Shown here one piece after another: positions 607 through 17,318 of a stretch of DNA of 34,314 bases. The stretch is from NCBI GenBank assembly GCA_964404765.1, contig CAYOLL010000004.1, positions 1 to 34,314 of the forward strand, read 5' to 3'. A program made the position numbers and the translations under genes. The notes below the pieces were generated by a model, which worked only from the letters and a program-made list of their open reading frames with translations, made no database searches and had not been told where the DNA came from. Numbering within the stretch: the stretch's first letter is position 1; every line of letters begins with the position of its first letter. Source of the stretch: an uncultured Gemmatimonadota bacterium (GTDB lineage: Bacteria; 4572-55).

Positions 607-2409
607 TTATCCGGTAAAACCCGCCGCTCGCAGCGCTTTCCACAAATTTGTGCGGCGCTGGTGGTCAATCCGCCAGCGAGCGATGAGGTTTTGGCAGCCA
701 ACGGGGTCAATTTCCTGAATAACCATCAGCCAACCGGCATGGGGCGTGTAATCGGATTTGTGATGCGCGTTAGGGTCCGGAGCCAGCAGAACGACGTGTT
801 TACGCCAGCATTCGCAAAGCGCGGCGCTGAATCGTCCGCCGTCCAATCGTCGCAGCCACTGCTGTCGCGCCGCGATCAGTTCATCGGTCCGATCCGGCCG
901 ACCCATAAGCGCTAAGAGACGCGGGAACGGCACATTATCGCCGGACAGGGCGGCCAGGTCACAGGTAAGCAAGCGAACGGTCTTTTGCTGATCCGAAAAA
1001 GCCACGCCATCCACGCGGAGTTGCGCCAGCCAACCCTCCATCTTCAACATAAACGCGCTTTTGTCATCGTTAAGTCCCGCCTGAAGCAGCCAATTGACCC
1101 ATGTATCTTTGGTTTCTTTTTTCCGTTCCCCAAAACCACCCGGCAACGAACGGTCATACATGATGTTGCGCCATTGCTCCGTCAAGGTCATGATCGGCGG
1201 TCGTTCCCGATGTTGCCGGTAAAAATCGGCAATGTTATCCCAGGCAAATGGCGTGGCATATAGCATTTTCTGGTAGCGCAGGCTTAGCGTGCGTTCACCC
1301 AAATTCAGCTTTTCGGCAACTGAAATCCAATCCGCAAGCAGGTCGGTGATAGTTGAGTTGGGCTCGCCGGAGCCGTAGATAGCGCCGGAAGTCAGCATTT
1401 TTTGCTCCGGCTGCCAATCTTCCACCCGGCTGTAGCCGCTGCTTTTGGCATAGCTGGCGATGGTCTGCATATACAGCTTGTTGACCTCCGGTAAGTTGCC
1501 TTTTTTCGTCAGGTCGGCGATCAACGGGGGACCGCATTGCCAGTTTTGGGCCAAATTCAGCCGGCACAGGTCCAGGTGGGCGTCTTGATCGAATTTTTGC
1601 GCATAGTCGCGATAGATTTCGTTCCAGCGACCATGGGCGGACGTCAACTTTTGCTTCCAGTCAGAAGAGTCCTGATTGGCTCGAATGTGCTCGAATATCT
1701 GTTGCTGTTGATCAGCCGGCAAAGTTGTGGTGAAAAACACATGGTAAGCTTGCCAATCCAGACTGCAATGGCTCAGCTCATTTTCAAGTTTCAACAGACG
1801 CTCCAGAAAAGTCAGGACGGATTCCTGACTATTTTGCGTCACCAACCATTCCCATTTTAACAAACATTCGGTAGTGATTCGCTCAAACGCGCAAGGTTCG
1901 GCATCGGCGCACATCCATTCGGGATAGCTGTCAATACTATCATTAATTGCTTGGAGTTCATCGGCAAAACAGTCGTCATCCTCTTGCTCCAGGGCAAACA
2001 CCTCTGCGAGCATGGGCGTCATTTTAGCGGCAATCTTCTCCAAATCCTCGGCCAGGGCACACGGGTCAAAATAGGGCTCTTCCCAGTCCGCCTCTTGCTG
2101 AACATAAGCGCCGTCCTCTTCACCCACTTCAGAAGCCACATTGCTCCATTGACGCCACAGGTCGCGCCATTCAGCAAAGAGCTTGTCATCCGAAACGACG
2201 CGCGTTTTGCTTGCGGTTACGGCCTGTGGCGTCAGTAGCCGTTTCAGGGTGAGGGAAATGTCCGGATTGAGCGATTCGAGCAATCGTTTGATTTGTTCAG
2301 GTTGCAGTAACTTAAAGGTCGCATTCAGAACCTCCCGGATTTGCTCATGGGTCAGGGCATTAAACAAATCGTCGGTTTTAGCGGTATTCGTTTTTTCATT
2401 TTGGGTCAT
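607..2409 (-). CDS. Hypothetical cytoplasmic protein (600 aa, acidic, Trp-rich), no recognisable domain
   Basis: A long ORF with an AAGGAAG RBS 6 nt before the ATG at 2409 (MTQNEKTNTAKTDD...). I found no TM segments and no known catalytic motifs. Confidence 0.55.
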   Translation of the reverse strand: MTQNEKTNTAKTDDLFNALTHEQIREVLNATFKLLQPEQIKRLLESLNPDISLTLKRLLTPQAVTASKTRVVSDDKLFAEWRDLWRQWSNVASEVGEEDGAYVQQEADWEEPYFDPCALAEDLEKIAAKMTPMLAEVFALEQEDDDCFADELQAINDSIDSYPEWMCADAEPCAFERITTECLLKWEWLVTQNSQESVLTFLERLLKLENELSHCSLDWQAYHVFFTTTLPADQQQQIFEHIRANQDSSDWKQKLTSAHGRWNEIYRDYAQKFDQDAHLDLCRLNLAQNWQCGPPLIADLTKKGNLPEVNKLYMQTIASYAKSSGYSRVEDWQPEQKMLTSGAIYGSGEPNSTITDLLADWISVAEKLNLGERTLSLRYQKMLYATPFAWDNIADFYRQHRERPPIMTLTEQWRNIMYDRSLPGGFGERKKETKDTWVNWLLQAGLNDDKSAFMLKMEGWLAQLRVDGVAFSDQQKTVRLLTCDLAALSGDNVPFPRLLALMGRPDRTDELIAARQQWLRRLDGGRFSAALCECWRKHVVLLAPDPNAHHKSDYTPHAGWLMVIQEIDPVGCQNLIARWRIDHQRRTNLWKALRAAGFTG

Positions 2410-2625
2410 AATGCTTCCTTTTTTATGAGGAGTGATCGCTTGTTCATGTTCAGCCAAGGGTAGCCTGACAGAATCTAAGCATAGATAGTGCAACAGGTCA
2501 AGAAGTTCCGATATAGAGAATGATTTTTCTTGAATTCAGGTTGGATAATGAAGCAGGCTGTGAGGAGGAAAAGAAAGCGGATTAAAAGAGGCGTCACCTT
2601 TTTCGTGCAAACCGGTCTATTAAAA

Positions 2626-3489
2626 TTAAAGCAGAAAAGAGTCGATAATCAGCGCAAAAAAAAGCCCGAGCAAATAAACAATAGAATAGCCGAACAACTG
2701 CCAATGCCGGGTCGGTGTGGGATTCTGCCAATCCCGATAGGTTTTGAAGATAAAAAACAGGCCGCACCCGACAGCAACCACCAGATAGAGCAAGCCCGCA
2801 GTCAGATAATAAAGCAGCAGGCTGACGACCACCGTCGCCACGGAATAAAGCCACATTTGGCGCAGAGTAGTTATGTCGCCCTTGATCAATGGCATCATCG
2901 GGTAGCCGACTTCGCGATAATCTTCTTTGTAATATAATGCCAGCGCCCAAAAATGGGGTGGCGTCCACAAAAATATAATAAGAAACAACAAAATTGCCGT
3001 CCAGCTCAATGAATTGGCCGCGGCAGCCCAGGCAATCACCGGACCCATGGCGCCGGCTGCTCCACCGATAACAATATTTTGCGGCGTCGTCGGTTTGAGC
3101 CATAAGGTATAAAAAAAGCTGTAAAACAAGATAGTTCCGACTGCCAACGCCGCGCTAAACCAGTTAAAAGCCATAGCAAAAATAAGTACGCCCGCTACAC
3201 CAATGCCAATCGAGAAAATCAGGGCTTCGTTCGGTAAAATACGCCCGGACGGCAGCGGTCGCTTTGTTCGTGTCCGGCTCATGCGCGCGTCCACGTTACG
3301 CTCAAAATATTGATTCATGGCATTGGCACAACCTCCGGTTAAATACAAGGCGAACAATGCGGCGAAAAACCGAGCCGGGTCGGCGAGCAGACTTTTTTCC
3401 AAAAATAAGGCCGTCATACCGGTTATCACTACCAGCAGCATAATGGACGGCTTGGTTAATTGGAAGCAGGCTTTAATTTTTTTCAACAT
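2626..3489 (-). CDS. ctaB: Protoheme IX farnesyltransferase (heme O synthase), UbiA family
   Basis: A polytopic membrane protein with CyoE/CtaB hallmarks: LTKPSI..LLVV, NQYFERNVDARMSRTRTKRPLPSGRI, and WTPPHFWALAL. Confidence 0.9.
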   Translation of the reverse strand: MLKKIKACFQLTKPSIMLLVVITGMTALFLEKSLLADPARFFAALFALYLTGGCANAMNQYFERNVDARMSRTRTKRPLPSGRILPNEALIFSIGIGVAGVLIFAMAFNWFSAALAVGTILFYSFFYTLWLKPTTPQNIVIGGAAGAMGPVIAWAAAANSLSWTAILLFLIIFLWTPPHFWALALYYKEDYREVGYPMMPLIKGDITTLRQMWLYSVATVVVSLLLYYLTAGLLYLVVAVGCGLFFIFKTYRDWQNPTPTRHWQLFGYSIVYLLGLFFALIIDSFLL

Positions 3490-3667: not shown

Positions 3668-4120
3668 TTATTTCGCTGTTTCCGGTCTAAGCATAGGCCC
3701 GTAGCCCAGGGGCAGACCGCCTAATTCCCGCACATCTTTAAGCGTGTAGCGCTCCGCCCAATCTTTAAAATGCTCCTTTAAGACCGCCCAAAAGCCATGT
3801 AACGGGCATGGCTCGTCCTGATTGCACAGTCCCCAGCCAAACATACAGACCGTAGAGTCTACTTCATAATCCACTGCGTTTAGAATATCAATAAAGCGTA
3901 TCTTGTCTAACGGTTGAGCAAAGGTAAATCCCCCGCCGTGACCTTTCTGCGACAATAAAATACCGCCCGTTACCAACCGCCGCATGATCTTAGACAAGTA
4001 GTGCGACGGAATTTCCGCAATTTTTGACAAATCTTGCGTACGATGCGATACATCGTCCGGTTGCGAGGCCATATAGGCTACTGCCCGCATTGCGTATTCA
4101 GCCGTTTGTGTCAACCGCAT
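3668..4120 (-). CDS. Rrf2-family transcriptional regulator (NsrR/IscR-like, probably Fe-S-binding)
   Basis: MRLTQTAEYAMRAVAYMA is the N-terminal wHTH typical of Rrf2. The three-Cys cluster CMFGWGLCNQDEPCPLH matches the [Fe-S] ligand region of NsrR/IscR. A strong GGAG RBS sits 8 nt before the ATG at 4120. The ORF-track start at 4150 is a TTG; the MRLT start is typical for the family. Confidence 0.85.
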   Translation of the reverse strand: MRLTQTAEYAMRAVAYMASQPDDVSHRTQDLSKIAEIPSHYLSKIMRRLVTGGILLSQKGHGGGFTFAQPLDKIRFIDILNAVDYEVDSTVCMFGWGLCNQDEPCPLHGFWAVLKEHFKDWAERYTLKDVRELGGLPLGYGPMLRPETAK

Positions 4121-4280
4121 ATTGACTCCTTCATTCATTGCCCTCTTCAATTTTCGGCTTGCAGCATGGTGTCACTTTGGACTCCGACATACCGGCATAA
4201 TGGCTTAACCGAAACCCACGTTTTTTGAAAAGCATTGGTATCTTCAATAAAAATATAAAATTTTTTTTAAAAGTCAACTT

Positions 4281-4348
4281 AATAGACTTGACAATCTATT
4301 AAAAATATATAATTTTGGATTTACAAGTCCATAGACATTGAAATCTAT
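4281..4348. promoter_or_regulatory. Two dyad-symmetric sites ATAGA-N8-TCTAT: AATAGACTTGACAATCTATT at 4281-4300 and ATAGACATTGAAATCTAT at 4331-4348. They overlap candidate -35 elements (TTGACA at 4288-4293, TTTACA at 4320-4325).
   Basis: Inverted repeats read in the AT-rich divergent region between the Rrf2 gene and the HCO-like gene. They are positioned as operators over a plus-strand promoter. Confidence 0.4.
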
Positions 4349-4371
4349 TGAAATTTGAAAGGACGGCGACC

Positions 4372-5778
4372 ATGCAAACTTCAACCAAACTGACCGAACA
4401 ATGGCTGCGAATTGCCATCGGTTCCCTGATTCTGGCCGGATTGCTTTCGCTCATTCTGGTGATTGGGCGGATGCCGTATCTTAGCCAATTTATCACCGAC
4501 CCGCAGTTTGCCAAAAAATGCCTGGTGATCCATGTGAACCTGGCCATTTTTGTCTGGTTGTTCTCGTGCCTGACCGCGCTGTTCAACCTGATTCCGGCGG
4601 GCAAGCCGCTTGAGTTCAAAACACACACCGCGCCGGTGGCGATGCTGGGTATCGGTTGCTTTGTGATCAGCGCCGCCTGGCCGGAGGCGATGCCCATCCT
4701 GTCCAACTATATTCCGGCCATTGATCATCCGCTGTTTTTTATCGGCATTGCCCTATTTTCGCTGGCCGTGGCGATCAATTTGGTCGACCGCCGTTTATTT
4801 AGCGGCAGTAACGCCGGACTCCCGACGCATAACGCTACCGCAGGACAGATGAGCCTGAGTCCAGTGACCGTGGACGGTTTGCGCGGGGCGGGTTTGGCCG
4901 GATTACTGGCTTTCGCGGTTATCTTGATTACGGCCTGGCGGATTGACGCTAATTATACGCCAACGATGTACTACGATCTCGTCTTTTGGGGCGGCGGTCA
5001 TGTTATGCAATTTGCCAATATCCTGGGTATGCTGTCGGTCTGGTTGATTTTGCTGGAAGCATCCACCGGCCTGACGCCGATCTCGCAAAAAGCGGCGCGG
5101 GGACTTTTTGGCTGGCTGCTATTGCCGCTACTCTTCACGCCATTTCTGGCCTGGCAGGTTAACACGCCTTTTTATCAGAAAAGTTTTACCCGTCTGATGC
5201 AATGGGGCATATTTCCCGCCGTGTCCATCTTCCTGATCATCTGTCTATATACTGTATATCGCGCCTATCGCACCGGAAGAATAAGCCGCAGCGCCTTCCG
5301 TCATCCGGCGTTCATGGGCTTTGCTGCCAGCGCTGGCCTGACCTTGGTAGGGTTTGGGCTGGGGGCGATGATTCACCGTGTGGATACGCTGATCCCAGCG
5401 CATTATCATGCGGCGATTGGGGCTGTCACTGTGGCTTATATGGCAGTCGCGTATCGGGTGTGGGCGGCGCTGGGTTATCGGATTCAATCGCAGCGGCTGA
5501 CGCAGGCGGCCGGCTGGCAACCGGCGCTGTTTGGCATCGGCCAGGCCGTATTTGCGGTCGGCTTTGGGTTAGCCAAAATGGCCCGCAAGGTATATGGCGA
5601 CGAGCAGATTATACAAACCGCCACGCAACACGCCGGCCTGGTGTTGATGGGAATTGGCGGTTTTATTGCAATTGCCGGTGGAATTACATTTATCTGGATT
5701 ATTGCCGGCCTTATCTATCGCTATGAGCCTGCGACTTCGCATTTTAATTCGGAACTGAAAGTTGTCGTTAAGTCTTAA
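4372..5778 (+). CDS. Heme-copper oxidase subunit I-like membrane protein, a divergent paralog lacking the helix-VII His-His CuB ligands
   Basis: A polytopic TM protein that aligns with the downstream subunit I. It has a helix-II His (LVIHVNLAIFVW), WGGGHVMQF (compare WWGLGHVSQQ), G..MIHRVDTLIPAHYHAAIGAVT (compare GTEQINIIAHNTLRIPGHFHATVVGGS) and GLAKMARKVYGD (compare GSYGVPRRHYDV). It has no HH motif. The ATG is at 4372, after a GGA RBS. Confidence 0.6.
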   Translation: MQTSTKLTEQWLRIAIGSLILAGLLSLILVIGRMPYLSQFITDPQFAKKCLVIHVNLAIFVWLFSCLTALFNLIPAGKPLEFKTHTAPVAMLGIGCFVISAAWPEAMPILSNYIPAIDHPLFFIGIALFSLAVAINLVDRRLFSGSNAGLPTHNATAGQMSLSPVTVDGLRGAGLAGLLAFAVILITAWRIDANYTPTMYYDLVFWGGGHVMQFANILGMLSVWLILLEASTGLTPISQKAARGLFGWLLLPLLFTPFLAWQVNTPFYQKSFTRLMQWGIFPAVSIFLIICLYTVYRAYRTGRISRSAFRHPAFMGFAASAGLTLVGFGLGAMIHRVDTLIPAHYHAAIGAVTVAYMAVAYRVWAALGYRIQSQRLTQAAGWQPALFGIGQAVFAVGFGLAKMARKVYGDEQIIQTATQHAGLVLMGIGGFIAIAGGITFIWIIAGLIYRYEPATSHFNSELKVVVKS

Positions 5779-5800
5779 CATAATCTGGAGTATATCACCG

Positions 5801-5824
5801 GGAGTGCAAAATTTTAATTTTGCG
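5801..5824. promoter_or_regulatory. Palindromic motif GGAGTGCAAAATTTTAATTTTGCG (copy 1 of a repeated TGCAAAA-N-TTTTGCA element)
   Basis: An inverted repeat about 60 bp upstream of the small-TM gene start. Near-identical copies occur at 6643-6666, 8447-8473 and 8481-8506. Confidence 0.4.
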
Positions 5825-5882
5825 AAAATAAAGGATGTACGCGGAACTAAAATTTTCCTACTCCAAAAAAAAGGAGCGAACT

Positions 5883-6035
5883 ATGGATGAACGTGATGAA
5901 GAAAAAAATCCGCTGCATAAGCTGATGGATAATCCCTGGCTGTTGCTGGTGCTGGGATTAGTGGTGCCGATTTTGTCTTATACCGTCTGGGGTTTGATCG
6001 AGATTATGACAATGCCGCAGGCGCTTTTGCCATAA
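5883..6035 (+). CDS. Small single-TM protein (50 aa), candidate accessory subunit of the oxidase/NOR complex
   Basis: MDERDEEKNPLHKLMDNPWLLLVLGLVVPILSYTVWGLIEIM has one hydrophobic helix. A strong AAGGAG RBS precedes it. It sits between the subunit-I-like and subunit II genes. Confidence 0.5.
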   Translation: MDERDEEKNPLHKLMDNPWLLLVLGLVVPILSYTVWGLIEIMTMPQALLP

Positions 6036-6098
6036 CTTTAAGCTAATTCGCGGCTGCATGTCAGCCACGCTATCGCAATCTTAAAAAGGAGGAGACTC

Positions 6099-6623
6099 AT
6101 GAGTATTTACTCACCCGCGTCGGGCTGGTTTAAGGCGCCCGAAGGCGCCGAACGGCTGTGGATTGGCATCGCTTTAATTTGGTGCTTGATTATGTTTATC
6201 GCCATGCCTTATTGGCATTTTAAAGGGAAACAGAACAGTACCGGCGAGTCATATCGTGTTGATCCGAAAGCGTTTAATGAACGCATCGAAAAATATGTTC
6301 AGACGAATAAAGTTGGCGAAGAATTGGGCATTCCGGTCGTGGAAGCCGCGCCCGGCGGTGATGTTTATCTGCTCGGACAAATGTGGCGCTGGTATCCGAT
6401 TCTGAAGCTAAAAAAAGATCAGACCTATCGACTGCACATCTCGTCCATTGACTTGCAGCATGGCTTTTCGCTGATGCCAATGAACATGAATTTTCAAGTG
6501 CTGCCGGGTTATGACCATGTTTTGACCATCACGCCAACATCAACCGGCATCTTTCCGATTATTTGTAACGAGTTTTGCGGTATCGGTCATCACATGATGA
6601 CTGGCCGGATTATTGTAGAATAA
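6099..6623 (+). CDS. Heme-copper oxidase/NOR subunit II with cupredoxin domain and a complete CuA site
   Basis: An N-terminal TM is followed by a cupredoxin domain. The CuA ligand pattern is H(QHGFS)...C-N-E-F-C-G-I-G-H-H-M-M, i.e. C-x-E-x-C-G-x2-H-x2-M. The 174-aa size resembles ba3-type subunit II. An AGGAGG RBS precedes it. Confidence 0.85.
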   Translation: MSIYSPASGWFKAPEGAERLWIGIALIWCLIMFIAMPYWHFKGKQNSTGESYRVDPKAFNERIEKYVQTNKVGEELGIPVVEAAPGGDVYLLGQMWRWYPILKLKKDQTYRLHISSIDLQHGFSLMPMNMNFQVLPGYDHVLTITPTSTGIFPIICNEFCGIGHHMMTGRIIVE

Positions 6624-6642
6624 ACACAATTTTGCAAATAGC

Positions 6643-6666
6643 GGAGTGCAAAAATTTATTTTTGCA
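6643..6666. promoter_or_regulatory. Palindromic motif GGAGTGCAAAAATTTATTTTTGCA (copy 2), preceded by ATTTTGCAAAT at 6628-6638
   Basis: A near-perfect inverted repeat about 57 bp upstream of the subunit I ATG, positioned like a class-II activator site. Confidence 0.4.
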
Positions 6667-6722
6667 GCCTTTGTTTAGCGAGATTAAAAATTTCGCACCC
6701 CGACAATTCATTAGGAGGAAAT

Positions 6723-8435
6723 ATGGGAAATTTTTTACCAAATCAAATGCGTACGTGTGATACGACGCGGCTACCCGTTTGTCTGACGGCGCAGCTATTT
6801 ATCCGCGCTCATGCCGTATTTGCCGTTGTCTATTTACTGGTGGGCGCGATTGCCGCGCTACTATTGGCCTTGACGCGCTGGTCGGCGGTCCATCTGCTGC
6901 CTGCCGATTGGTACTATCGCATTTTGACTTTACACGGTATCAACATGCTGATTTTTTGGATGCTATTTATGGAAGTAGCGATTCTCTATTTTGCCAGCAC
7001 AACGCTGCTTAACTCACGCACTTTTTCCAAACCAATGGGTTGGGTCGGTTTTGTGCTGATGGTTGTAGGCTCGCTCATGACCGATTGGATGATTTTAACC
7101 GGCAAGGGCGATGTATTAATGACCTCATACGTGCCGCTCAAAGCGGATCCGATGTTCTATCTGGGCATCATTTTGGTAGCCGTCGGTGTCTTGCTGGGCA
7201 TTGTTAATTTTTTTGGAACACTCTATATCGCTAAACGGGATCATACTTATACCGGTTCGGTGCCATTAGTCACTTTTGGCGCATTGGCCGCGGCCATTAT
7301 CGGCGTGCTGACCATTTTGCATGGCGCGGCCATCTTGATCCCGACAATGCTCTGGTCAATGGGTTTGATGCCGGTCCCGGACGCGGGCGTTTATCGTCTG
7401 ATCTGGTGGGGACTGGGCCATGTTTCGCAGCAAGTAAATGTCTGTGCGATGGTTTCCGTGTGGTACTTTCTGGCCACGCTGACTGTCGGCGCGCGCCCGC
7501 TAAACGAAACCGTCTGTCGCACGGCTTTTATTCTCTATATTTTATTCATCAACTTAGCTTCGGCGCATCATTTATTGGTCGATCCCGGTGTTGGAGCTAC
7601 CTGGAAAATATGGAACACTTCCTACGCTATGTACCTGGCTGTATTAGCCTCGCTGATTCACGGCTTCACCGTGCCGGCATCGGTCGAAGTGGCCCAGCGC
7701 ATGAAAGGCTACACTCGCGGCATGTTCCAATGGCTGACTTCCGCGCCGTGGGGCGATCCGGGCTTTTCCAGCTTCTTCCTGTCGCTGACAATTTTTGGTT
7801 TTATTGGTGGTATTACCGGAGTGACGCTGGGCACTGAGCAAATTAATATCATTGCTCACAATACGTTGCGTATTCCCGGTCACTTCCATGCCACAGTGGT
7901 CGGCGGCTCAACGCTGGCTTTTATGGGTTTAGCCTACTATGTGGTTCCGCTGATTTTTCAGCGTGAGTTTTATTTAAAGGGCGTTGCTCGGGTGCAGCCG
8001 TACATTTTTGCCGCCGGTATTGTTATGCTGTCATTCGGGATGTCCTTTGCCGGTTCATACGGTGTGCCGCGCCGCCATTATGATGTTGATTTTACCGGGG
8101 CGAATATTCCGGCCGGTTTCGACTCTGCCGCACACTTTATGTTAGGGATTGTCGGTATTGGTGGAACTCTGGCTTTCATTGGGGCATTGATTTTTGTTCT
8201 GCTGGTGGTGGCGGCTGTCTTTTTTGGTAAATCCAATGTCGGTCAGCCCATGTCCGCCTGGCAATCTGCGGATAATCTGAAAATGAACGCCAACGTGCTG
8301 TCCCGGCCAATTGATGAGGCCATTGCGCATAAAGTTCCGGGTACTGTCACTTTAACGCTTGTCTTATTGGTATCTTTTGTGGTATACTATTTTGCTAACT
8401 GGAAAGCGTTGGCAGATGTCTGGTTTGTGCGGTAA
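6723..8435 (+). CDS. Heme-copper oxidase superfamily subunit I (B-family-like; putative NO reductase catalytic subunit)
   Basis: It has 12 or more TM helices with a helix-II His (LHGINMLIFWMLFMEVA), the helix-VI CuB His in WWGLGHVSQQVNV, the helix-VII HH in ASAHHLLVDPG, and the helix-X heme ligands in GHFHATVVGG. The 570-aa size is close to ba3 subunit I. Gln replaces the Tyr of the GHPxVY motif. An AGGAGG RBS precedes it. Confidence 0.9.
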   Translation: MGNFLPNQMRTCDTTRLPVCLTAQLFIRAHAVFAVVYLLVGAIAALLLALTRWSAVHLLPADWYYRILTLHGINMLIFWMLFMEVAILYFASTTLLNSRTFSKPMGWVGFVLMVVGSLMTDWMILTGKGDVLMTSYVPLKADPMFYLGIILVAVGVLLGIVNFFGTLYIAKRDHTYTGSVPLVTFGALAAAIIGVLTILHGAAILIPTMLWSMGLMPVPDAGVYRLIWWGLGHVSQQVNVCAMVSVWYFLATLTVGARPLNETVCRTAFILYILFINLASAHHLLVDPGVGATWKIWNTSYAMYLAVLASLIHGFTVPASVEVAQRMKGYTRGMFQWLTSAPWGDPGFSSFFLSLTIFGFIGGITGVTLGTEQINIIAHNTLRIPGHFHATVVGGSTLAFMGLAYYVVPLIFQREFYLKGVARVQPYIFAAGIVMLSFGMSFAGSYGVPRRHYDVDFTGANIPAGFDSAAHFMLGIVGIGGTLAFIGALIFVLLVVAAVFFGKSNVGQPMSAWQSADNLKMNANVLSRPIDEAIAHKVPGTVTLTLVLLVSFVVYYFANWKALADVWFVR

Positions 8436-8446
8436 ACTTCTAACAT

Positions 8447-8506
8447 GGAGTGCAAAAATAGATTTTTGCAGTGGGAAAAAAGTGCAAAATTAAAATTTTG
8501 CACTCC
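8447..8506. promoter_or_regulatory. Two adjacent copies of the palindromic motif: GGAGTGCAAAAATAGATTTTTGCAGTG at 8447-8473 and AGTGCAAAATTAAAATTTTGCACTCC at 8481-8506 (a perfect 26-bp palindrome)
   Basis: Inverted repeats read directly, 37 to 95 bp upstream of the HiPIP ATG at 8543. Confidence 0.4.
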
Positions 8507-8542
8507 GATACTTTAACCAATTTTAAATGGAGCGAACCAATC

Positions 8543-8893
8543 ATGGAAAACATGATTACCCGGAAAGAGTTTTTGAAAAAACTTGGCCTGATCGGCGTGG
8601 CCGCTTTTGGCGGCAGCACGCTATTAACGGCTTGCAGTAAAGGCGGCGAGCAAAGCGGGGGCGGCGCAGCGGCGGATCCTTGCGCGGATATCAGCGGCTT
8701 GAGCGATGCCGATAAGCAGACCCGCACCCAATTTCAATACGCTACAACGTCCGCCGATCCCAACAAGACCTGTGACAAATGCGCTTTGTGGCAAGGCGTA
8801 ACCGGCAGCGGCCCGTGCGGCGCCTGCCAGGTTGTCAAAGGCCCGATCGCCGTTTTAGGCACTTGCACGGCGTTTGCGGCCAAGCCGGCGTAA
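8543..8893 (+). CDS. High-potential iron-sulfur protein (HiPIP), lipoprotein-anchored
   Basis: The signal peptide has a lipobox (GSTLLTAC). The mature domain, TQFQYATTSADPNKTCDKCALWQG....GPCGACQVVKGPIAVLGTCTAF, matches the HiPIP four-Cys pattern C-x2-C...C...G-x-C with conserved aromatics. Confidence 0.7.
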   Translation: MENMITRKEFLKKLGLIGVAAFGGSTLLTACSKGGEQSGGGAAADPCADISGLSDADKQTRTQFQYATTSADPNKTCDKCALWQGVTGSGPCGACQVVKGPIAVLGTCTAFAAKPA

Positions 8894-8904
8894 TGTTATT
8901 TTTG

Positions 8905-8956
8905 AACCGGATCAACCCAAAGGATTTTGCGAGCCTTTTGGGTTGATCTTACCGGT
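8905..8956 (+). other. Long imperfect hairpin: AACCGGATCAACCCAAAGG-loop-CCTTTTGGGTTGATCTTACCGGTT (about 19-bp stem) between the HiPIP and sco genes. No adjacent U-tract.
   Basis: Read directly. The loop contains ATTTTGCGA, which resembles the TTTTGCA half-site. Confidence 0.35.
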
Positions 8957-9044
8957 TCTGTGAATTCGAGACTCGGTCAAAATTTTTTAATCAGTTTAGT
9001 GATAAATGGATATATTTTTCCTTTATCTGCAAAGCGAGGCTCCT

Positions 9045-9992
9045 ATGAAAATCATCGAAAATATACAGCAATTCCTGATTGGCTGGCGCTTTCCGGTGAT
9101 GATGGTGTCCATGCTGCTTTTTTTCAGCCTGGAGTTATTTATTGTCCTGTTGATTCCGGCTTCGAGCGGGGCGGCGGCACAGTTTGCCGAAGATTTTAAA
9201 ACCTGGTGTTTTGGCTATGACCCGGCTACGGGTAAACTGGAATGGGGTTATGTGATTATGTTTCTGATTCAGCCCTTGATGATGTGTGGCGTAATCATCA
9301 TGGTTTGGATCAAGCCGCTCAAGGAAGTCTGGCAAGATCGTCCGACTCAGACGGTGCCGTATCTGGTCAGTTCGGCTACGATTGTGCTGGCCCTGGGTGT
9401 AAGCCTGACGCTGATGGTTGGCGCGGATGCCCGCGCTGCCGATGAGCAATTGCCTTTTCCGGCTGAGGCGCTGCGCACGGAACTAAACCCGATCCCATTT
9501 TCGCTGATGAATCAGGATAGCGCCGTTGTGAGCCTGGAATCGTTAAAAGGCCGGGTGACGCTGATTACGGCAGTTTACGCCCGCTGTGGCTATACGTGCC
9601 CGATGATTTTGGCGCAAACGCGTCGGGTGATGAGCTCCCTGACGCCACAGGAATTGAAAGAGCTTTCGATTCTGGGCATCACGCTCGATCCGGAGCATGA
9701 CGATGTCGCCGTGCTGCGGGAAATGGCCGCCGGTCAACAAGTCAAGACGCCGCTGTTCCATTTTCTAACCGGCGAATCAGCCTATGTTAACCAAACCCTT
9801 GATATGTATGGTTTTGCCCGCAAGCGCAATCCGGAAACCGGGGTGATCGACCACGCCAATCTTTTTTTATTAATTGATCGGCAGGGCAAAATCGCTTATC
9901 GCTTTTCGATTGGCAAACGGCAGGAAGATTGGCTGGTTCACGCCATACGCATGTTGATTAAAGAAAAAAAGGGTTCGGGTGTCGCGGCATGA
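9045..9992 (+). CDS. SCO1/SenC-family copper chaperone with an N-terminal polytopic membrane extension
   Basis: The C-terminal thioredoxin-like domain carries YARCGYTCP (the CxxxC copper site) and a downstream DHANLFLLIDRQG (conserved His). The N-terminal 140 aa contains 3 to 4 hydrophobic helices. A GAGG RBS precedes it. Confidence 0.8.
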   Translation: MKIIENIQQFLIGWRFPVMMVSMLLFFSLELFIVLLIPASSGAAAQFAEDFKTWCFGYDPATGKLEWGYVIMFLIQPLMMCGVIIMVWIKPLKEVWQDRPTQTVPYLVSSATIVLALGVSLTLMVGADARAADEQLPFPAEALRTELNPIPFSLMNQDSAVVSLESLKGRVTLITAVYARCGYTCPMILAQTRRVMSSLTPQELKELSILGITLDPEHDDVAVLREMAAGQQVKTPLFHFLTGESAYVNQTLDMYGFARKRNPETGVIDHANLFLLIDRQGKIAYRFSIGKRQEDWLVHAIRMLIKEKKGSGVAA

Positions 9993-10053
9993 CCTGAAAA
10001 ACTCGTGACAGGCCACAAAGGCACGAAAACACTAAGTTTCACGAAGTTTGTTA

Positions 10054-12207
10054 ATGTTTTATGTCTTCAGCGCTTATGTTTGTGAACAATTCACCCGGAA
10101 AATTATGCGCCCACGCCCCATCATTACCCATGAGGATATACCACAACTAAATGCAACGCATGTGCGTGATGCCCGGTCCGAACCACCGGTGCGTGGCGAA
10201 GCTCTGCTGACCCAATTAGATATGCAGTTTACCCGGCTAAACCGATGGGTTAAGGCTGTCGTCCCTGATGCACTTAATCCGTTTACGCAGATGGGCGCCG
10301 TGGCGGATACGATGTTTATCGTTGCCATTATTAGTGGTATCTTGCTGTTGTTTTGGTATAAGGCCAGCGTGTTTCAGGCCTATGATTCGTTAGAAGCGAT
10401 GCGGCATAATTGGCCGGCGCAGTTAGTGCGCTCAATCCATCGTTATAGTTCGGACGGTTGTTTGCTCTTTGTCATTTTACATGCATTGCAAATTCTGGGA
10501 GCACGCAAGTTTGGCGGTGTGCGCTGGCTGGCCTGGGTTTCCGGTGTGGCGCTGGTCTGGCTGTTATGGGTAGATGGCTGGACGGGTTATTGGCTGGTTT
10601 GGGACGTGTCGGCGCAGCAAGTAGCGCTTGGCACCGCGAAATGGTTAGATGTGCTGCCGATTTTTGCCGACCCTTTATCACGTTCTTTTTTAACTGACGA
10701 CAGCGTCAATTCGTTATTCTTTTTTGTGGTGTTTTTTATCCACATGCTGCTGCCGCTGGTCATGGGTGTGGCGTTGTGGATTCACATTATGCGCTTAAAT
10801 GATTCGCATTTTCTGACCAATCGCAAGTTGACCGGCATTTTGCTTACGGCGCTGGTAATGGTTTCGCTTCTCTTTCCGGCTCTATCGGCTGAACAAGCGG
10901 CCATGCAAATCGCGCCACAATCTTTCAAGATGGATTGGTTTTATTTATTACCGCTGATTGTGACGGATCGTTTACATGGCGGTGGTTTGTGGTTAGTTAC
11001 CGTCATTTTTACGGTTGCTTTTTTTAGTGTGCCGTGGGCTATGGCCCGACAACGATCCGCGCCGGCAAAGGTCAATCCGGAACGCTGTCACGGCTGCACA
11101 CAGTGTTTTCAGGATTGTCCATTTAACGCGATTACGATGCGCCCGCGTGATGGTAAGCATCCGGTTGTATCCTATATTGATCCGGATAAGTGCGTGGGCT
11201 GCGGCGTGTGCGTCGGCTCGTGCGATCCCTGGGCAATTGAGTTTGATGCCCTGCGGCAGATGGATGTGCGCAAATGGATTCGTCAGCGGCTCAAGATCGA
11301 AACTGCTGATCCGCGTCACGTTGCTTTTGTTTGCGCCGATTCTGCCGGGGCGGATTTACAACTGAATGCCGCCGGGGAGTGCGCTGAATTGACTGGCTAT
11401 CGAATCGTGCCTGTGCCGTGTGTAAGCTGGCTGTTTGCGCCCATGATCGCGCAAGTATTGCGGGCCGGTGTGCCGGGGGTGATGGTTGTGGGTTGCGGAC
11501 CAAACGAAATTTGTCGTAAAGGCAACCGTTGGACGGCCGAACGTCTGGCTGGAACCCGCGAGCCTTATTTACTGATGACACCTTCTGCGGCCGCAGATCA
11601 TGATGAAAGTGATCTGGTTGGGCGGATTCGATATATACGCTACGATCGATCGCAGAAGGCGGAATTTATTGCCGACGCGCAGGATTTTCGGGCCGGAAAA
11701 GTGACTGCGCCAAAAGTGTCCGCCCGGCGTTGGGCAAACGTGGTGGTTATTTTTCTTATCTTAGCTGGGGCGATCATTACATTGAGTCGCATGCCCTATC
11801 GTCCGCCACAGTTGGAAACCGCGGAATTAGTGATCTCTTTCAAACATCCGGGGCAGTTGGTCGAGCAGGTTACGGCTTCCGCTGCCGATCAACAAAATAT
11901 ATTGCCGCACATGCGTGGCGGCGCCTCTAAAAAGAGGTTACGTACGGCGGTTCGTTTGCAGGTATTCGTCGATGGCGCAGAAAAAGTCAATCAAACACTG
12001 GCTCCACGCGGTCTATTTAGCGATGGCGCTAGCATTGCCATTGAAAAAATACCGCTATTGGAAGGTCGCCATCTGGTTAAAGTGCGAGTAGGCGATTCGG
12101 CTAATCCGGATGAATGGCAATTTTCTGATTCGCGCGAGCTGGATTTTAAAATAGCAACGCGACGTGTAGTTTTGTTCAGCAAATCGGCGGGATTTAAATG
12201 GTATTGA
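10054..12207 (+). CDS. Multi-domain membrane electron-transfer protein: di-heme cytochrome b (N-terminal), 2x[4Fe-4S] ferredoxin, an MvhD/FlpD-like domain, a TM helix and a C-terminal about 150-aa domain
   Basis: Two H-x13-H pairs in TM helices ([16 protein letters not shown] and [16 protein letters not shown]) match the cytochrome b heme bL/bH ligands, alongside an R..H..A...F motif. [12 protein letters not shown] and [12 protein letters not shown] are two 4Fe-4S motifs. [10 protein letters not shown] ... [37 protein letters not shown] resembles the methyl-viologen-reducing hydrogenase delta subunit domain. The start is uncertain: the ATG at 10054 and the ATG at 10105 both lack a clear SD, and the TTG at 10048 is also possible. 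Confidence 0.7.
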
Positions 12208-12359
12208 TCAAATAGATTTGCACAAGTTTCAAATTTTAGCGCACTTGCGTGCTAATAATGGACATGTAAGTCTATTATTATATTTTGTTTGCTACTTTAA
12301 TTCACAACGCGAGTTTGTGAGCTCGCACAATATCAATCTAAGGGAAGGAGTACGGGTTA

Positions 12360-13846
12360 TGGGAACAAAAAAGGGGTTGTTTTTCGGAACAGCGATGGTG
12401 ATTTTGACGCTTTCGTTATCGCTTATTTACTCATGTAATGAGCAGCAATCGGCACAATCAAAGTCAAGTGGGAGTAGCAGTAAAGCAGACAATGGGCTCG
12501 TTAAGTTGGAGCCGGTGGCCGTACAAGGCGAGGAAGTGGCAGTCTTAACCGATCCACCGATGGTGCCGCCACCGATTACGCGCACCAATGCGACAAAAGT
12601 GATTGTCAATCTGGAGGTTATTGAAAAAACAATGCGGATTGCCGACGGAGTGATGTATACTTTTTGGACATTCGGCGGGACGGTGCCTGGCAAGTTTATC
12701 CGCGTGCGTGAAGGCGATTTTGTAGAGTTTCACCTGAAAAATCATCCGGAAAATAAGTTGCCGCATAATATTGACTTACATGCGGTTACGGGACCTGGCG
12801 GCGGCGCAGCCTCCTCATTTACTGCCCCGGGGCACGAGTCGGTCTTTTCGTTTACGGCGATGAACCGCGGCTTGTATGTCTATCACTGCGCGACGGCGCC
12901 GGTAGGTATGCATGTGGCCAACGGCATGTATGGCTTGATCTATGTTCAGCCAAAGGAAGGCTTGCCGCCGGTTGACAAAGAATACTATGTTTTCCAAAGC
13001 GATTTTTACACCAAAGGCGCGTATGGCGCAGCCGGTCTGCAACCCTTCAGCATGGAGAAAGCTTTGCAGGAACTGCCGGATTATGTGGTTTTTAACGGCT
13101 CCGTCGGTTCGACAACCGGCGATAAGGCGATGACCGCCAAAGTCGGCGATAAAGTGCGCCTTTTTGTTGGCAATGGCGGCCCGAATATGGTCTCTTCCTT
13201 CCACGTTATTGGCGAAATTTTTGATAATGTTTATGAAGAAGGCGGCGATCGGGTTAATCATAACGTGCAGACAACAATGGTTCCGGCGGGCGGCTCGACG
13301 ATCACCGAATTTGTGTGTGAAGTGCCGGGCACGTTTATCCTGGTTGACCATTCCATTTTCCGGGCGTTTAACAAAGGCGCTATCGCGATGCTAAAAGTCG
13401 AAGGCGCTGAAAATAAAACGATCTACTCCGGTAAGCAGGATGATCGTATCTATCAAGGTGAAGGTTCTGCGGTGCAGGAAATGCCGGGGGGAGCTGTTGT
13501 CGAAGCGCCCGCAGCCAAGACCAAAGAGGAGCGTATGGAGCGCGGACAAAATGTGTATAAATCCATTTGCATTGCCTGCCATCAGGCCGAAGGTCAGGGT
13601 ATGCCGGGCGCATTCCCGCCATTGGCCGGTTCGGACTTCCTGAATGCTGACAAGAACCGCGCCATCAAGACGGTAATGAACGGCTTGGAAGGTAAGGTGA
13701 CGGTTAACGGCGCGGATTACAACGGCATCATGCCCAAGCTGAACCTGACAGATGAAGATATTGCCAATGTTGTTACCTATGTGCTGAATAGCTGGGGCAA
13801 TAGCGGCGGCGAGATTACGCGAGATGATGTGAAGAAACTGCGGTAG
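12360..13846 (+). CDS. nirK: Copper-containing nitrite reductase (NirK) with C-terminal mono-heme cytochrome c domain, lipoprotein
   Basis: The lipobox is LSLSLIYSC. The type-1/type-2 Cu ligand motifs are [13 protein letters not shown] and [18 protein letters not shown]. The two-cupredoxin length fits NirK. The C-terminal [19 protein letters not shown] is a CxxCH heme c site. A GGAAGGAG RBS precedes it. The ORF-track start at 12218 is a TTG far upstream. Confidence 0.9.
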
Positions 13847-14141: not shown

Positions 14142-17100
14142 ATGCAAGACCTTGAAAGTCTTAAAAGCAAGGCTGCTTCAGAGCTGACGCAAGCGCTGCC
14201 TTTGGTGGATAAATCTGTTGAAAAAAGCTCACCCAAAAGATTGGACGCAACGGCCTATAGCGCTATGCCGCCGGCGATTGCCGAAATGTGCCAGCGTTAT
14301 GGTCGCAAGAAAAATGCGGCGACTCGTCTGGAAGTTTTGCTGCAATGTTTTGACGCCCTACAGATTCATGTTACCTGCTTGCTGTTGGCTGATTATTTGA
14401 ATAGCGCCGGTGTTGATACCGACTTAAACGATTTACTAAGTGACTATCTGGCCGAGTCTGAAATCAGCGCTATTTTTTTCTATATACTGCTGGAACAATA
14501 CCGTGCCAGCAATAGTGGCCATTTCTTTGCCCGTCAGAAAAATCAACTAATGCCCGCCGTGCCATTTGAAGATTGGGAAATTGCTTATAAAAACATCAAT
14601 TTTTCGAATGCGCAACAATCCCTTGATCTTTTATTTCCCCGCATCAGCAAACAATTTGAGCTGTTTCGATTTTTAAACCAGTATCCTTTGTTTGTCGTGC
14701 GCGCCTATGATGAAGAGCGGGATGCCTATCAGGTGGATTGGTTACTGCAAAACAAAAGCGACTGGATTTCTTCAAAAAAAGATGAGCCGCTTATTCTCAA
14801 CCGACTTTATCTGGCAGACGAGGCGGGTTCCCTGTCGTTGCACCCGTTATTGATTACAGCCAAGTGTCCGAAGTGCCAGCAGGAGCACATTTTTTATTTT
14901 CAAAAAATTAATCGTGAAGCGCTTGTCTATTTCAATTTTGAAGATTTTCATACGCTCTCCATAACGGATGTCTCCGTTATGAGTGAACTGGGGAATACGC
15001 TGGCTCAGAAGAAAGCATACAGTCTGGCAGTACAATGCTTTGAAGTTATTTTGCGTATTCGACCCAATGACAAAACCGCCCGTTCGGGGTTGTTTGCGAC
15101 CCATAATCTGTATGGCGTGCAGCTTTTTGAGGCCAAAAAATTTGAGGAGTCCGGTGAGCAGTTTCGTTTAGCCTTAGTCTTGCGTGCCGATGTCAGCCAG
15201 GTTTATTTTAACCTGGCTACGGCGTATCGGAAGAGCAAAAATTTTAGCGGCGCACTGGAAACAATTGATCGACTATTGGAACGGCAGCCGAGTCTTACGA
15301 AAGCCTTGGAAGCCAAAGCGCAGATTCTGGAAGAGTACGGTCAGCATGACGAAGCCTTAAAAATCTATGAGACCGCCTTAAAATCCGATCTGGCATACAA
15401 ACGTATTTTTACTTCCTGGCGACGGTTAAGCGACCAAATTGCTATGCCGCAAGCTACGCCGGTTAAAAAAGACGACAAAAAAGCCGATAAAAAAACCGAC
15501 AAGCCGGAAAAGAAGGAAGATAAAAAATCGGCATTAGAAATTTTGACCCGTGATGTAATGGAATACGTTAAAAAAGAAGCCGTTGAGCCGATTTTTGGAC
15601 GGGAAAAAGAATTGGGCGAGATTATGGAAATTCTGACCTGCCATAATAAAAACAACGTCATACTGGTGGGTGAGTCCGGTGTTGGCAAATCGGCAATTGT
15701 CGAGGAGTTGGCCCGTCGGGTGATCCGCGAGGATGTGCCGCAGCGCCTCAAGGGTAAGCGCTTGCTGGAGCTTAGCACAACCACGCTGGTGGCCGGAACA
15801 AAGTTTCGCGGCGAATTGGAAGAGCGAATTCTAAGTTTAGTGGATGAAATTAAGAGTGATGGCAGTATTATTCTTTACATTGACGAGATATCCAGTATCG
15901 TTCACGGCGGTTCCTATCGCGGCAGTACTGTGGAAATTTCCGGTGTTTTAAAGCCCGCCCTGGCGCGTGGCGAAATCCAGTGCATCGGCACGGCGACACT
16001 CGACGAATATCGTCGCAATATCGAAAAAGATCAGGCACTGGAACGGCGCTTTCAAATTGTGCATGTTGACGAGCCAAGTGTTGATGAAACATTGTCGGTG
16101 CTAAAAATTACGGTTAACAAGTTTGAGACTTTCTACGGTGTGCATTTTGATGATGAAGCCATGCGTTTAGCAGCAGAGTTTGCCAAAAATTTTTTGCGGG
16201 ATCGGGCCTTGCCGGATAAAGCCCTGGACTTGCTTGATCGCGCCGGGGCAAGTGTGGCCTATGCCGCACAAAACGACCCAAATATTCCGCCCTATGTGAC
16301 GCCGGACGATATGATTCGGATTGTATCCAAGATCAGCGGTGTGCCGGTTAATAAAATCGACCAATCCAATGCTGAGCGCTACCAGAACATGGAGTCTATT
16401 TTGCGTCGCAAAATTGTCGGTCAGGATGCGGCAATTGATCAGGTTTGCCGTGTTATCCGTACGAATCGCATGAAGTTTAAGTTGAATCCCAGCCGTCCGG
16501 AGGGTGTTCTGCTTTTTCTTGGCCCTACCGGGGTAGGCAAGACCGAGCTGGCCAGAATGCTGGCTGAGTTTCTGTTTGGCAGTGTTGATGACATGATTCG
16601 GATTGATATGTCTGAGTTTTCTGATCGCATTGCCACGACCAAGTTGGTTGGCGCTGCGCCGGGTTATGTGGGTTACAATGATCCTAATCAATTGACGGAT
16701 CGGGTGCGAAACCACCCTTATACGCTTGTTTTATTAGATGAAATTGAAAAAGCTGATTCGCAGGTTCTCAATATTTTTCTGCAGGTTTTTGACGCCGGTC
16801 GCCTGACGGATTCCAAAGGCCGCGATGTGGCTTTTAATCACACAACCGTTGTGATGACATCCAATATTGGTTCCGAGTTGTTTTTTAAAACGACTATCGG
16901 TTATGGGGATAATCGCAACGGCGGTTCTTCCGGGAAGGCTGTGGCGGTTTCCACGCAGCAACTGATGCGGCAGCTTCAGAGCCGGTTGACCCCGGAATTT
17001 TTGGGTCGGATCGATGAAATTGTTGTCTTTAATCCGCTGATGCTGGACGACGCCAAAAAAATTGTTGAATTGCGGCTTAAGGCGATTCATGACCAATTGC

Positions 17101-17318
17101 ACTTGGAGGAAAAAACGCTTTTTCTGTATGATTCCGCGCTTGAATTTTTGGTGGAAGTCGGTTTTGATTCGGAATTTGGCGCGCGCAATTTGGACAAGAC
17201 AATTCGTCAATATTTGTTAGACCCGTTGGCGCGGAAAAAGCTGCAGCCGGATTGGATGTCCGTCCACGAAATCAGCGTCGCGCGGCAAGGGCAGAATTTA
17301 CAAATTATTATGAAGTGA
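14142..17318 (+). CDS. ClpA/ClpC-like double AAA+ unfoldase with a novel about 470-aa N-terminal TPR-containing domain and a Lys/Asp-rich linker
   Basis: D1 carries GESGVGKSAIVEELARRV, Walker B ILYIDEISSIV and TKFRGELEERI. D2 carries VGQDAAIDQV, LFLGPTGVGKTELARMLAEFLF, IRIDMSEFSD and LVLLDEIEKADSQVLNIFLQVFDAGRLTDSKGRDV. It has no long M-domain, so it is ClpA-like rather than ClpB-like. A possible ClpP-docking IGY tripeptide lies in D2. The N-terminal region has TPR-like repeats and a KKDDKKADKKTDKPEKKEDKK linker. An AAGGA RBS precedes it. Confidence 0.8.
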   Translation: MQDLESLKSKAASELTQALPLVDKSVEKSSPKRLDATAYSAMPPAIAEMCQRYGRKKNAATRLEVLLQCFDALQIHVTCLLLADYLNSAGVDTDLNDLLSDYLAESEISAIFFYILLEQYRASNSGHFFARQKNQLMPAVPFEDWEIAYKNINFSNAQQSLDLLFPRISKQFELFRFLNQYPLFVVRAYDEERDAYQVDWLLQNKSDWISSKKDEPLILNRLYLADEAGSLSLHPLLITAKCPKCQQEHIFYFQKINREALVYFNFEDFHTLSITDVSVMSELGNTLAQKKAYSLAVQCFEVILRIRPNDKTARSGLFATHNLYGVQLFEAKKFEESGEQFRLALVLRADVSQVYFNLATAYRKSKNFSGALETIDRLLERQPSLTKALEAKAQILEEYGQHDEALKIYETALKSDLAYKRIFTSWRRLSDQIAMPQATPVKKDDKKADKKTDKPEKKEDKKSALEILTRDVMEYVKKEAVEPIFGREKELGEIMEILTCHNKNNVILVGESGVGKSAIVEELARRVIREDVPQRLKGKRLLELSTTTLVAGTKFRGELEERILSLVDEIKSDGSIILYIDEISSIVHGGSYRGSTVEISGVLKPALARGEIQCIGTATLDEYRRNIEKDQALERRFQIVHVDEPSVDETLSVLKITVNKFETFYGVHFDDEAMRLAAEFAKNFLRDRALPDKALDLLDRAGASVAYAAQNDPNIPPYVTPDDMIRIVSKISGVPVNKIDQSNAERYQNMESILRRKIVGQDAAIDQVCRVIRTNRMKFKLNPSRPEGVLLFLGPTGVGKTELARMLAEFLFGSVDDMIRIDMSEFSDRIATTKLVGAAPGYVGYNDPNQLTDRVRNHPYTLVLLDEIEKADSQVLNIFLQVFDAGRLTDSKGRDVAFNHTTVVMTSNIGSELFFKTTIGYGDNRNGGSSGKAVAVSTQQLMRQLQSRLTPEFLGRIDEIVVFNPLMLDDAKKIVELRLKAIHDQLHLEEKTLFLYDSALEFLVEVGFDSEFGARNLDKTIRQYLLDPLARKKLQPDWMSVHEISVARQGQNLQIIMK

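Follow-up and report, generated by a model that had tools for sequence, protein, structure and literature searches.

Which substrate does a heme-copper oxidase (HCO) reduce when its active site lacks the cross-linked tyrosine and its genes lie close to a copper nitrite reductase gene? This question is raised by a 34,314-nucleotide stretch of DNA, called here the window, from an uncultured Gemmatimonadota bacterium (GenBank assembly GCA_964404765.1, contig CAYOLL010000004.1, positions 1 to 34,314 of the forward strand). The initial annotation of this DNA proposed that the HCO is a CuA-type nitric oxide (NO) reductase of the eNOR, sNOR or gNOR families rather than an O2 reductase. Our results support this proposal and narrow it to eNOR, on the basis of Gln237 and Ser310 in subunit I, an intact CuA site in subunit II and a clade with 99% bootstrap support. 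We consider it very probable that the island is a two-step module taking nitrite to nitrous oxide (N2O), built around an eNOR-family NO reductase.

Murali et al. 2024 (PMC11214002) defined eNOR, sNOR, gNOR and nNOR as families that lack the active-site tyrosine and derive from B-type oxidases. According to that work, the eNOR of Rhodothermus marinus reduces NO and not O2 and contains heme As. A B-like K-channel, including Ser309, is kept in eNOR and bNOR, while the Ser309 equivalent is missing in sNOR. gNOR has Asp for one of the metal-B histidines and a subunit II without CuA ligands, and nNOR combines a cNOR-type Glu site with Met as a low-spin heme ligand. Some eNORs carry a His/Lys low-spin heme. 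The residue at the tyrosine position is tabulated in PMC8756737 (Table A4, also section 2.7.1) as Y in oxidases, E in cNOR and qNOR, N in sNOR and Q in eNOR.

Subunit I (6723-8435, plus strand) has 570 aa, 13 membrane helices and a Pfam COX1 score of 217.9 bits. Its residues were read from structure alignments to the Thermus thermophilus ba3 oxidase (PDB 1EHK, 3S8F) and from a 51-sequence MAFFT alignment. The six canonical histidines are kept: H71 and H389 are the ligands of the low-spin heme, H387 of the high-spin heme, and H233, H282 and H283 of metal B (ba3 H72, H386, H384, H233, H282 and H283, respectively). The stretch GLGH233VSQQ237 aligns with ba3 GH233PIVY237, and thus the cross-link Tyr is replaced by Gln237, with Gln236 before it in place of the ba3 Val236. 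Gln237 is invariant in 21/21 aligned members of the clade. The K-channel residues Y248, S310 and T316 correspond to ba3 Y248, S309 and T315, and this pattern is conserved across the clade, with two exchanges relative to ba3: H313 for Thr312 and Val244 for Tyr244. These changes, together with a separate place in the tree, set the window's enzyme apart from ba3, which reduces O2.

Subunit II (6099-6623, plus strand) consists of one membrane helix and a cupredoxin domain (Pfam COX2, 25.3 bits), and its closest solved relatives are ba3 subunits II (E 1.7e-11). HGF and CNEFCGIGHHMM align with the CuA ligands of ba3, so that His, Cys-x3-Cys, His and Met are all present. Upstream lies the gene for a small subunit (5835-6035, plus strand; likely start 5883) with one hydrophobic helix and no Pfam match, in a position analogous to ba3 subunit IIa. 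The same build is seen in the ba3 oxidase, whose subunit I has 13 helices, whose CuA subunit II has a single one and which contains a small third subunit. The Tyr-less active site and the intact CuA of the initial annotation were both recovered in the ba3 alignments.

The likeness to ba3 is also an argument for a different reading, by which the enzyme is an O2 reductase, either a divergent B-family member or a 'K-family' one, with another residue replacing the cross-linked Tyr and an incidental nirK nearby. The best solved-structure matches of subunit I are B-family oxidases (Aquifex, E 6e-45; T. thermophilus ba3, E about 1e-41), ba3-type oxidases being the nearest over a range of E 6e-45 to 1e-40. 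Moreover, helix VII of all clade members, but not that of ba3, carries a tyrosine (Tyr272) ten residues ahead of the HH pair, which could be thought of as the replacement. However, Tyr272 is not at the cross-link position of C-family oxidases. In those enzymes the tyrosine sits at -6 from the HH pair, where subunit I has Ile276. From its position in the helix, Tyr272 appears to lie too deep, about 15 A toward the cytoplasm, for a cross-link of the C-family type, and it plausibly compensates in the K-channel for the lost ba3 Tyr244.

The tree also argues against an O2 reductase. A neighbour-joining tree (482 columns, 100 bootstraps) was built with sequences from an exhaustive search of representatives and from plasmid hits; one of its reference sequences was short by one residue. 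Subunit I falls in a clade defined by the motif H-x-x-Q-Q (99% bootstrap), and the B family, including two PDB references with ba3 among them, forms a separate clade (100%). The initial annotation had named a place inside an O2-reducing B-family clade as the outcome that would speak against it; subunit I, with Gln237 four residues after the helix-VI His, lies outside that clade. Gln237 is invariant across the whole Gln-type clade, the characterised eNOR is without O2 reductase activity, no migrated Tyr is found in these families (PMC11214002), and an operator shared with nirK points to a role in nitrogen-oxide metabolism. Taken together, we regard the O2 reductase reading as very improbable.

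The Gln-type clade holds the window's subclade, a Defluviimonas plasmid protein, genes from megaplasmids of T. thermophilus and Thermomicrobium roseum, and a haloarchaeal sequence (P0244; locus L087). The Defluviimonas protein (locus L084) is the alphaproteobacterial sister of the window's clade (50% identity, 89% support), and a search seeded with it returned only relatives from Rhodobacterales and Hyphomicrobium, with at least 80% identity. In the Thermus member, Lys takes the place of the low-spin heme ligand His386 of ba3. This is the reported His/Lys variant, and by it the Gln-type clade can be tied to the published eNOR family. This Thermus gene, an eNOR-type subunit I with Lys for the low-spin heme His, lies at 9004-10689 of its locus (L085, megaplasmid NZ_AP025614.1), and its neighbours encode a NirK-like multicopper oxidase, a cytochrome c, a cytochrome P460 and an Rrf2 protein of its own.

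Sister to the Gln-type clade is a grade with the motif H-x-x-Q-Y (P0243, P0246, P0248 and P0269). It retains the Tyr, and Gln236, Ser310 and His313 are common to both groups. These sequences are presumably O2 reductases, and the grade probably corresponds to the 'K family' oxidases that are said in bioRxiv 592808 to cluster with eNOR. Their closeness counts in favour of an O2-reducing enzyme in the window. As the sister keeps the Tyr while sharing the other residues, the switch from O2 to NO chemistry may need very few residues. A further HCO group (P0290, P0291, P0312, P0369 and P0375) was not matched to any named family. Its motifs are H-x-x-H-Y (helix VI), Y-H where H-H is usual (helix VII) and Y-x-H where H-x-H is usual (helix X), so that Tyr stands at the usual positions of a metal-B His and of the high-spin heme His.

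The initial annotation left the choice among the CuA-type NO reductases open, and all these families are derived from B-type oxidases and Tyr-less (PMC11214002), so that sNOR, bNOR, gNOR or nNOR might be considered in place of eNOR. The active site speaks for eNOR in each comparison. In sNOR and bNOR, Asn stands in for the Tyr, and the Ser309 equivalent is missing from sNOR, whereas subunit I of the window has Gln237 and Ser310. In gNOR, Asp occupies the place of one metal-B His and the CuA ligands are absent, whereas H233, H282 and H283 and the complete CuA set are present here. In nNOR, cNOR and qNOR a Glu acts as fourth FeB ligand, and nNOR has the Met heme ligand, in contrast to Gln237 and the His71/His389 pair of the window. 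Membership in one of these other families is therefore extremely improbable, and we refer to the enzyme as a predicted eNOR.

Comparison with described systems is consistent with this assignment. The eNOR of R. marinus DSM 4252 (Rmar_0161, PMC11214002) shares with the window its B-type derivation, a CuA subunit II, the Tyr-less site, a K-channel-like path and a denitrification of the NirK type. Metagenome-assembled genomes (MAGs) of Rhodothermales (L004 and L009) carry copies 70-77% identical to the window's subunit I. Rmar_0161 itself probably belongs to another eNOR subclade, since it is not among the 80 closest genome matches, all of which have at least 63% identity. Neither this enzyme nor the other biochemically characterised one, from M. 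magnetotacticum, appeared among the matches of the homolog searches, the genome scan or the plasmid search. R. marinus respires through a high-potential iron-sulfur protein (HiPIP), a type of protein that is also encoded in the window. The bNOR of Bacillus azotoformans (qCuANOR) is another CuA-containing enzyme that reduces NO and goes back to B-type oxidases; its proton channel faces the cytoplasm, and it is electrogenic (PMC11214002). In contrast to the window's enzyme, bNOR has an sNOR-type site, in which Asn replaces the Tyr. It occurs only in Bacillales and had an independent origin.

An operon of similar organization is that of Ferrigenium straubiae KS (bioRxiv 10.64898/2026.01.22.701106). 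Alongside eNOR subunits II and I it encodes heme O synthase, Sco1 and a 'scaffold protein' as well as cytochrome b/Fe-S proteins. During denitrification its transcripts are high and its products appear in the proteome; the exception is heme O synthase, which has no listed value. The logic of this operon is that of the window, and the Defluviimonas plasmid locus has the F. straubiae gene order. There are also differences. The window's clade has the cytochrome b, the ferredoxin, the MvhD domain and the C-terminal domain fused in one protein, and a paralog of subunit I is added as first gene; in this comparison HiPIP and an adjacent nirK are found in the window only; and the FAD and NADH domains of the F. 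straubiae protein are missing from the window's counterpart.

The core gene set is not peculiar to this genome. A scan of one genome per species gave 557 relatives of subunit I, and the 80 closest were used for counting. These have about 63-78% identity to subunit I, with no GTDB species representative nearer than 77%, all come from MAGs, and they span Rhodothermales, Balneolaceae, Calditrichota, Leptospiraceae, Myxococcota, Planctomycetota, Verrucomicrobiota and others. Neighbouring genes were counted by tblastn of the window's proteins against the related loci, with the evaluable loci as denominators. Subunit II was present in all 75 loci and the cytochrome b fusion in all 60. The small subunit was found immediately upstream of subunit II in 70/75 loci, the subunit-I paralog directly upstream in 57/66 and Sco directly downstream of subunit I in 69/70. 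Other genes are less constant: among the 30 fully flanked loci, heme O synthase occurs within 10 kb in 21 and nirK within 10 kb in 10, and a divergent Rrf2 gene was seen in 19 of 66. Contigs from metagenomes and the genome of an isolate, Fodinibius halophilus, also show the order paralog, small subunit, II, I, Sco, fusion. With its core gene order shared by 80 independent genomes, the island is not a chance juxtaposition. Judged on sequence, the locus is a further example of the recently validated eNOR family, in an arrangement that is widespread in metagenomes.

The link between nirK and the eNOR genes comes from a shared palindrome. The 18-bp sequence ATAGAC-N6-(A/G)TCTAT has three matches in the window, all of them in the eNOR and nirK promoter regions, compared with 0.35 expected by chance, and none of 100 shuffles reaches three. 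Two matches (ATAGACTTGACAATCTAT at 4282-4299 and ATAGACATTGAAATCTAT at 4331-4348), which are candidate Rrf2 operators, lie in the divergent promoter between the Rrf2 gene and the eNOR operon. The third (ATGGACATGTAAGTCTAT, 12258-12275) precedes the ATG of nirK by about 85 bp. Palindrome pairs occur at the equivalent position of the eNOR operon in five related loci (L003, L004, L016, L023 and L024), with a single copy in L006. Further pairs immediately precede nirK in Fodinibius halophilus (L003; 3948 and 3964) and in a Balneolaceae genome (L023; 3403 and 3419). This conservation supports a nirK-eNOR regulon under the adjacent Rrf2 protein, with the palindrome as its candidate operator.

The Rrf2 regulator (3668-4120, minus strand) is encoded in an ORF that reaches 4150; its likely start is the ATG at 4120, behind a GAAGGAG ribosome-binding site. 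It scores 93.6 bits with Pfam Rrf2 and 103.5 bits with TIGR00738, and Cys92, Cys99, Cys105 and His108 align with the cluster ligands of IscR. An NsrR-like regulator had been proposed initially. Part of this holds, since the protein is an Rrf2 member with a Cys3-His motif and palindromes front both the eNOR operon and nirK. The scores, however, are nearer to IscR (TIGR02010, 72.9 bits, cutoff 207; solved IscR structures, E 3e-9) than to NsrR (NF008240, 38.9 bits; solved structures, E 8.6e-6) and far below the NsrR cutoff of 182. The NsrR regulons of Nitrosomonas europaea and Neisseria (Rodionov et al. 2005, PMC1274295) resemble the window in having an Rrf2 Fe-S repressor beside nitrite and NO reductase genes and palindromic operators in the promoters; they differ in that the window's regulator is not an NsrR orthologue by model score and carries an IscR-like Cys3-His motif. 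We infer that NO is the obvious candidate effector of this protein. The operator consensus of NsrR differs from ATAGAC-N6-GTCTAT.

A regulator nearer to IscR than to NsrR would also suit another function, in which the module serves NO detoxification or stress rather than respiratory denitrification and the Rrf2 protein senses general Fe-S or redox damage. Such a role is raised in the F. straubiae preprint too (bioRxiv 10.64898/2026.01.22.701106), nirK is nearby in only 10 of the 30 fully flanked loci mentioned above, and neither nitrate reductase nor N2O reductase genes were found in the 34-kb window. Nevertheless, the NO-producing nirK sits in the island behind the same operator, and the conserved K-channel and the dedicated membrane electron-transfer partner suggest energy coupling. 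We thus consider a purely protective module unlikely, although less so than the other alternatives. The two roles can coexist and are not mutually exclusive.

Several points weigh against a nitrite-to-N2O module built around eNOR. The family assignment relies on diagnostic residues, proxy members and operon similarity, and the tree behind it is distance-based, not a maximum likelihood tree. The locus was read from sequence alone, and at this level respiration and NO detoxification look the same and the B-site metal may be either Fe or Cu. No gene for CtaA (heme A synthase) was found in the 34-kb window, eNOR being reported with heme As. The regulator is not a recognisable NsrR orthologue by score, and its binding to the palindrome is a prediction. 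Finally, HiPIP cannot be the general electron donor, because it is absent from all 87 related loci.

The HiPIP gene (8543-8893, plus strand; ORF from 8471) is placed between subunit I and Sco, in this window only. Its product aligns with the solved HiPIP 3h31_A (E 3.8e-13), which we take to be the respiratory HiPIP of R. marinus, with the four cluster cysteines matched. The Pfam score is 17.9 bits, under the cutoff of 22. The protein carries an RK-type Tat-like signal and a lipobox (LLTAC), and is thus a candidate for a membrane-tethered donor to CuA. As the periplasmic donor, which was its initially proposed role, HiPIP is plausible here given the resemblance to a solved HiPIP, but it is not a conserved part of the system. 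Other donor candidates are a cupredoxin adjoining nirK in L003 and a cytochrome c in L012. That HiPIP occurs only here, with other candidate donors elsewhere, suggests that donor genes are swapped between lineages.

NirK (12359-13846, plus strand) has an ORF that begins at 12218, with the ATG at 12359 after an AAGGAG ribosome-binding site. It scores 355.9 bits with TIGR02376 (cutoff 296.3) and 49 bits with Pfam Cytochrom_C, and matches PDB 2ZOO (E 4e-198) and 3ZIY (E 3.5e-194) over its full length (residues 57-495). It is thus predicted to be a standard three-domain copper nitrite reductase of the periplasm with a C-terminal CxxCH cytochrome c, and its N-terminus is a lipoprotein-like signal peptide. 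The Sco/SenC copper chaperone (9006-9992, plus strand; Pfam SCO1-SenC, 76.8 bits) has three N-terminal membrane helices and a CGYTCP motif, and its presumed role is CuA assembly. Heme O synthase (CyoE/CtaB; 2626-3489, minus strand) scores 306.9 bits with NCBIfam NF003349 (cutoff 246) and matches Pfam UbiA; it would make the farnesylated precursor for the heme A-type cofactors of eNOR, and its gene beside the operon is consistent with heme As at both heme sites.

The two remaining conserved proteins of the island are accessory ones. The HCO subunit-I paralog (4372-5778, plus strand; alternative start 4348) has 12 membrane helices and 25% identity to subunit I (E 4e-17). In all 119 homologs, H62, H218, Q221, H352, Y353 and H354 are invariant, and the HH pair of helix VII is missing. 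The layout is a His in helix II, a His in helix VI with Gln at +3, and H-Y-H in helix X. As the heme histidines are invariant and the helix-VII HH pair is absent, the paralog should bind two hemes and no metal B. Its AlphaFold model (pLDDT 90.6) has ba3 subunit I as top Foldseek matches (TM 0.72-0.76); cNOR and qNOR structures were only distant matches, in a comparison made with this model and not with subunit I. The paralogs make up a clade of their own in the neighbour-joining tree, with 100% support, and the Q-Q and Q-Y enzymes are its sister. The paralog is the first gene of the operon in most loci of the window's eNOR subclade; the eNOR loci of alphaproteobacteria, Thermus, Thermomicrobium and haloarchaea lack it. 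The family (P0122-P0240) is populous and unnamed, its four invariant histidines covering both heme sites and one active-site His, and we found no description of it in the literature searched.

The fusion protein (10048-12207, plus strand) contains Pfam Cytochrome_B (63.2 bits), Fer4 (42.3 bits) and FlpD (39.9 bits) domains. It begins with a six-helix di-heme cytochrome b with two H-x13-H motifs, followed by a cytoplasmic ferredoxin with two [4Fe-4S] clusters, an FlpD/MvhD-like domain similar to the HdrA2 C-terminus, a seventh helix and a periplasmic domain of about 140 aa. The closest solved structures are cytochrome b6 (E 3e-17) and HdrA (E 3e-9). The C-terminal helix and domain correspond to a separate gene in Defluviimonas (E 2.5e-9). 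The presence of the fusion in every evaluable locus argues for a required role in electron transfer.

We considered that the paralog or the fusion could substitute for CtaA. In a paralog-less Verrucomicrobia locus (L054:7343-8341, minus strand), a CtaA gene takes the paralog's place upstream of the eNOR genes and adjoins heme O synthase. Seven other paralog-less loci have no CtaA at the place of the paralog. T. roseum has a CtaA-CtaB fusion and neither the paralog nor the cytochrome b fusion. The evidence for substitution is therefore suggestive at best. We tentatively propose, as a possibility that is less likely than not, that the paralog and the fusion form an undescribed module of one large eNOR subclade. 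It might provide a private entry for electrons, from quinol or a cytoplasmic reductant to eNOR, bypassing bc1-type complexes, or the handling or maturation of heme As, an unusual cofactor, in operons without CtaA. If true, the paralog would be the first HCO-derived protein with a non-catalytic or a new catalytic role.

Accordingly with the gene content, the following scheme can be drawn. NirK would convert nitrite to NO, and eNOR would reduce 2 NO to N2O with cytoplasmic protons taken up through the K-channel, probably in an electrogenic reaction. The electron donor to CuA would be a carrier in the periplasm, in this locus the lipoprotein HiPIP, possibly along with the cytochrome c domain of NirK. 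Sco would load CuA, and CyoE would supply the precursor of the heme A-type cofactor. The cytochrome b/ferredoxin/MvhD fusion may be an obligatory partner of this eNOR subclade that most likely connects the enzyme with either the quinone pool or a reductant in the cytoplasm, and the two-heme paralog may be an accessory subunit or an assembly factor. The Rrf2 protein would repress both promoters through ATAGAC-N6-GTCTAT until a reaction of its Fe-S cluster, most likely with NO, releases them.

eNOR is a recently validated type of enzyme that makes the greenhouse gas N2O. The potential for N2O production has been overlooked in Bacteroidota-like, Myxococcota, Verrucomicrobiota and Planctomycetota genomes, and the locus described here offers a clean example with nirK attached. 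The combination of H-x-x-Q-Q with Ser310 and His313 can serve as a residue signature to recognise eNOR. Other usable products are the conserved six-gene module and the candidate operator linking nirK and eNOR to one Rrf2 protein. What is potentially new is the role of the paralog and the cytochrome b fusion, two conserved accessory proteins that are targets for learning how eNOR obtains its electrons and cofactors and, perhaps, whether it conserves energy.

The physical layout of the island, taken from an open reading frame (ORF) listing with Pfam and NCBIfam profile searches, departs in part from the initial annotation. All the gene products it named were found, and norBC, qnorB and bc1 genes are, as it stated, not among the remaining large ORFs of the window. 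It had counted 11 co-linear genes at 3668-13846. The count is ten, and the set is divergent rather than co-linear, because heme O synthase and Rrf2 sit on the strand opposite to the other eight genes. Heme O synthase lies 180 bp outside the start of that range, and the physical order of the genes differs from the order in which they had been listed. An Rfam scan of the window gave zero RNA families, and scans for sigma-70 promoters and terminators gave no excess over the shuffled expectation.

The other large ORFs of the window are unrelated to the island: a TPR-ClpB-like ATPase, proteases sorted by a type IX secretion system (T9SS), Uma2 nucleases, a flotillin-like protein and a pantothenate kinase. 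The T9SS sorting domains are a pointer to the FCB group. Downstream of heme O synthase and on the same strand, 607-2493 (minus) encodes a 628-aa soluble protein that matches no Pfam family even at E 1 and for which none of the 86 related loci has a homolog. On the other side of the island, 14142-17318 (plus) encodes a ClpB-like double-AAA+ ATPase, in which an N-terminal extension of about 480 residues with TPR repeats and a Lys/Asp/Glu-rich linker replaces the usual Clp N-domain. At 27331-28656 and 28683-30863 (both minus), a tandem pair of genes for putative Uma2-family endonucleases adjoins the flotillin-like gene. The flotillin-like protein has 726 aa with a long Ala/Glu/Lys coiled coil, and this coiled coil, not a tandem DNA repeat, accounts for the strong AT skew and high GC content at 29-30 kb.

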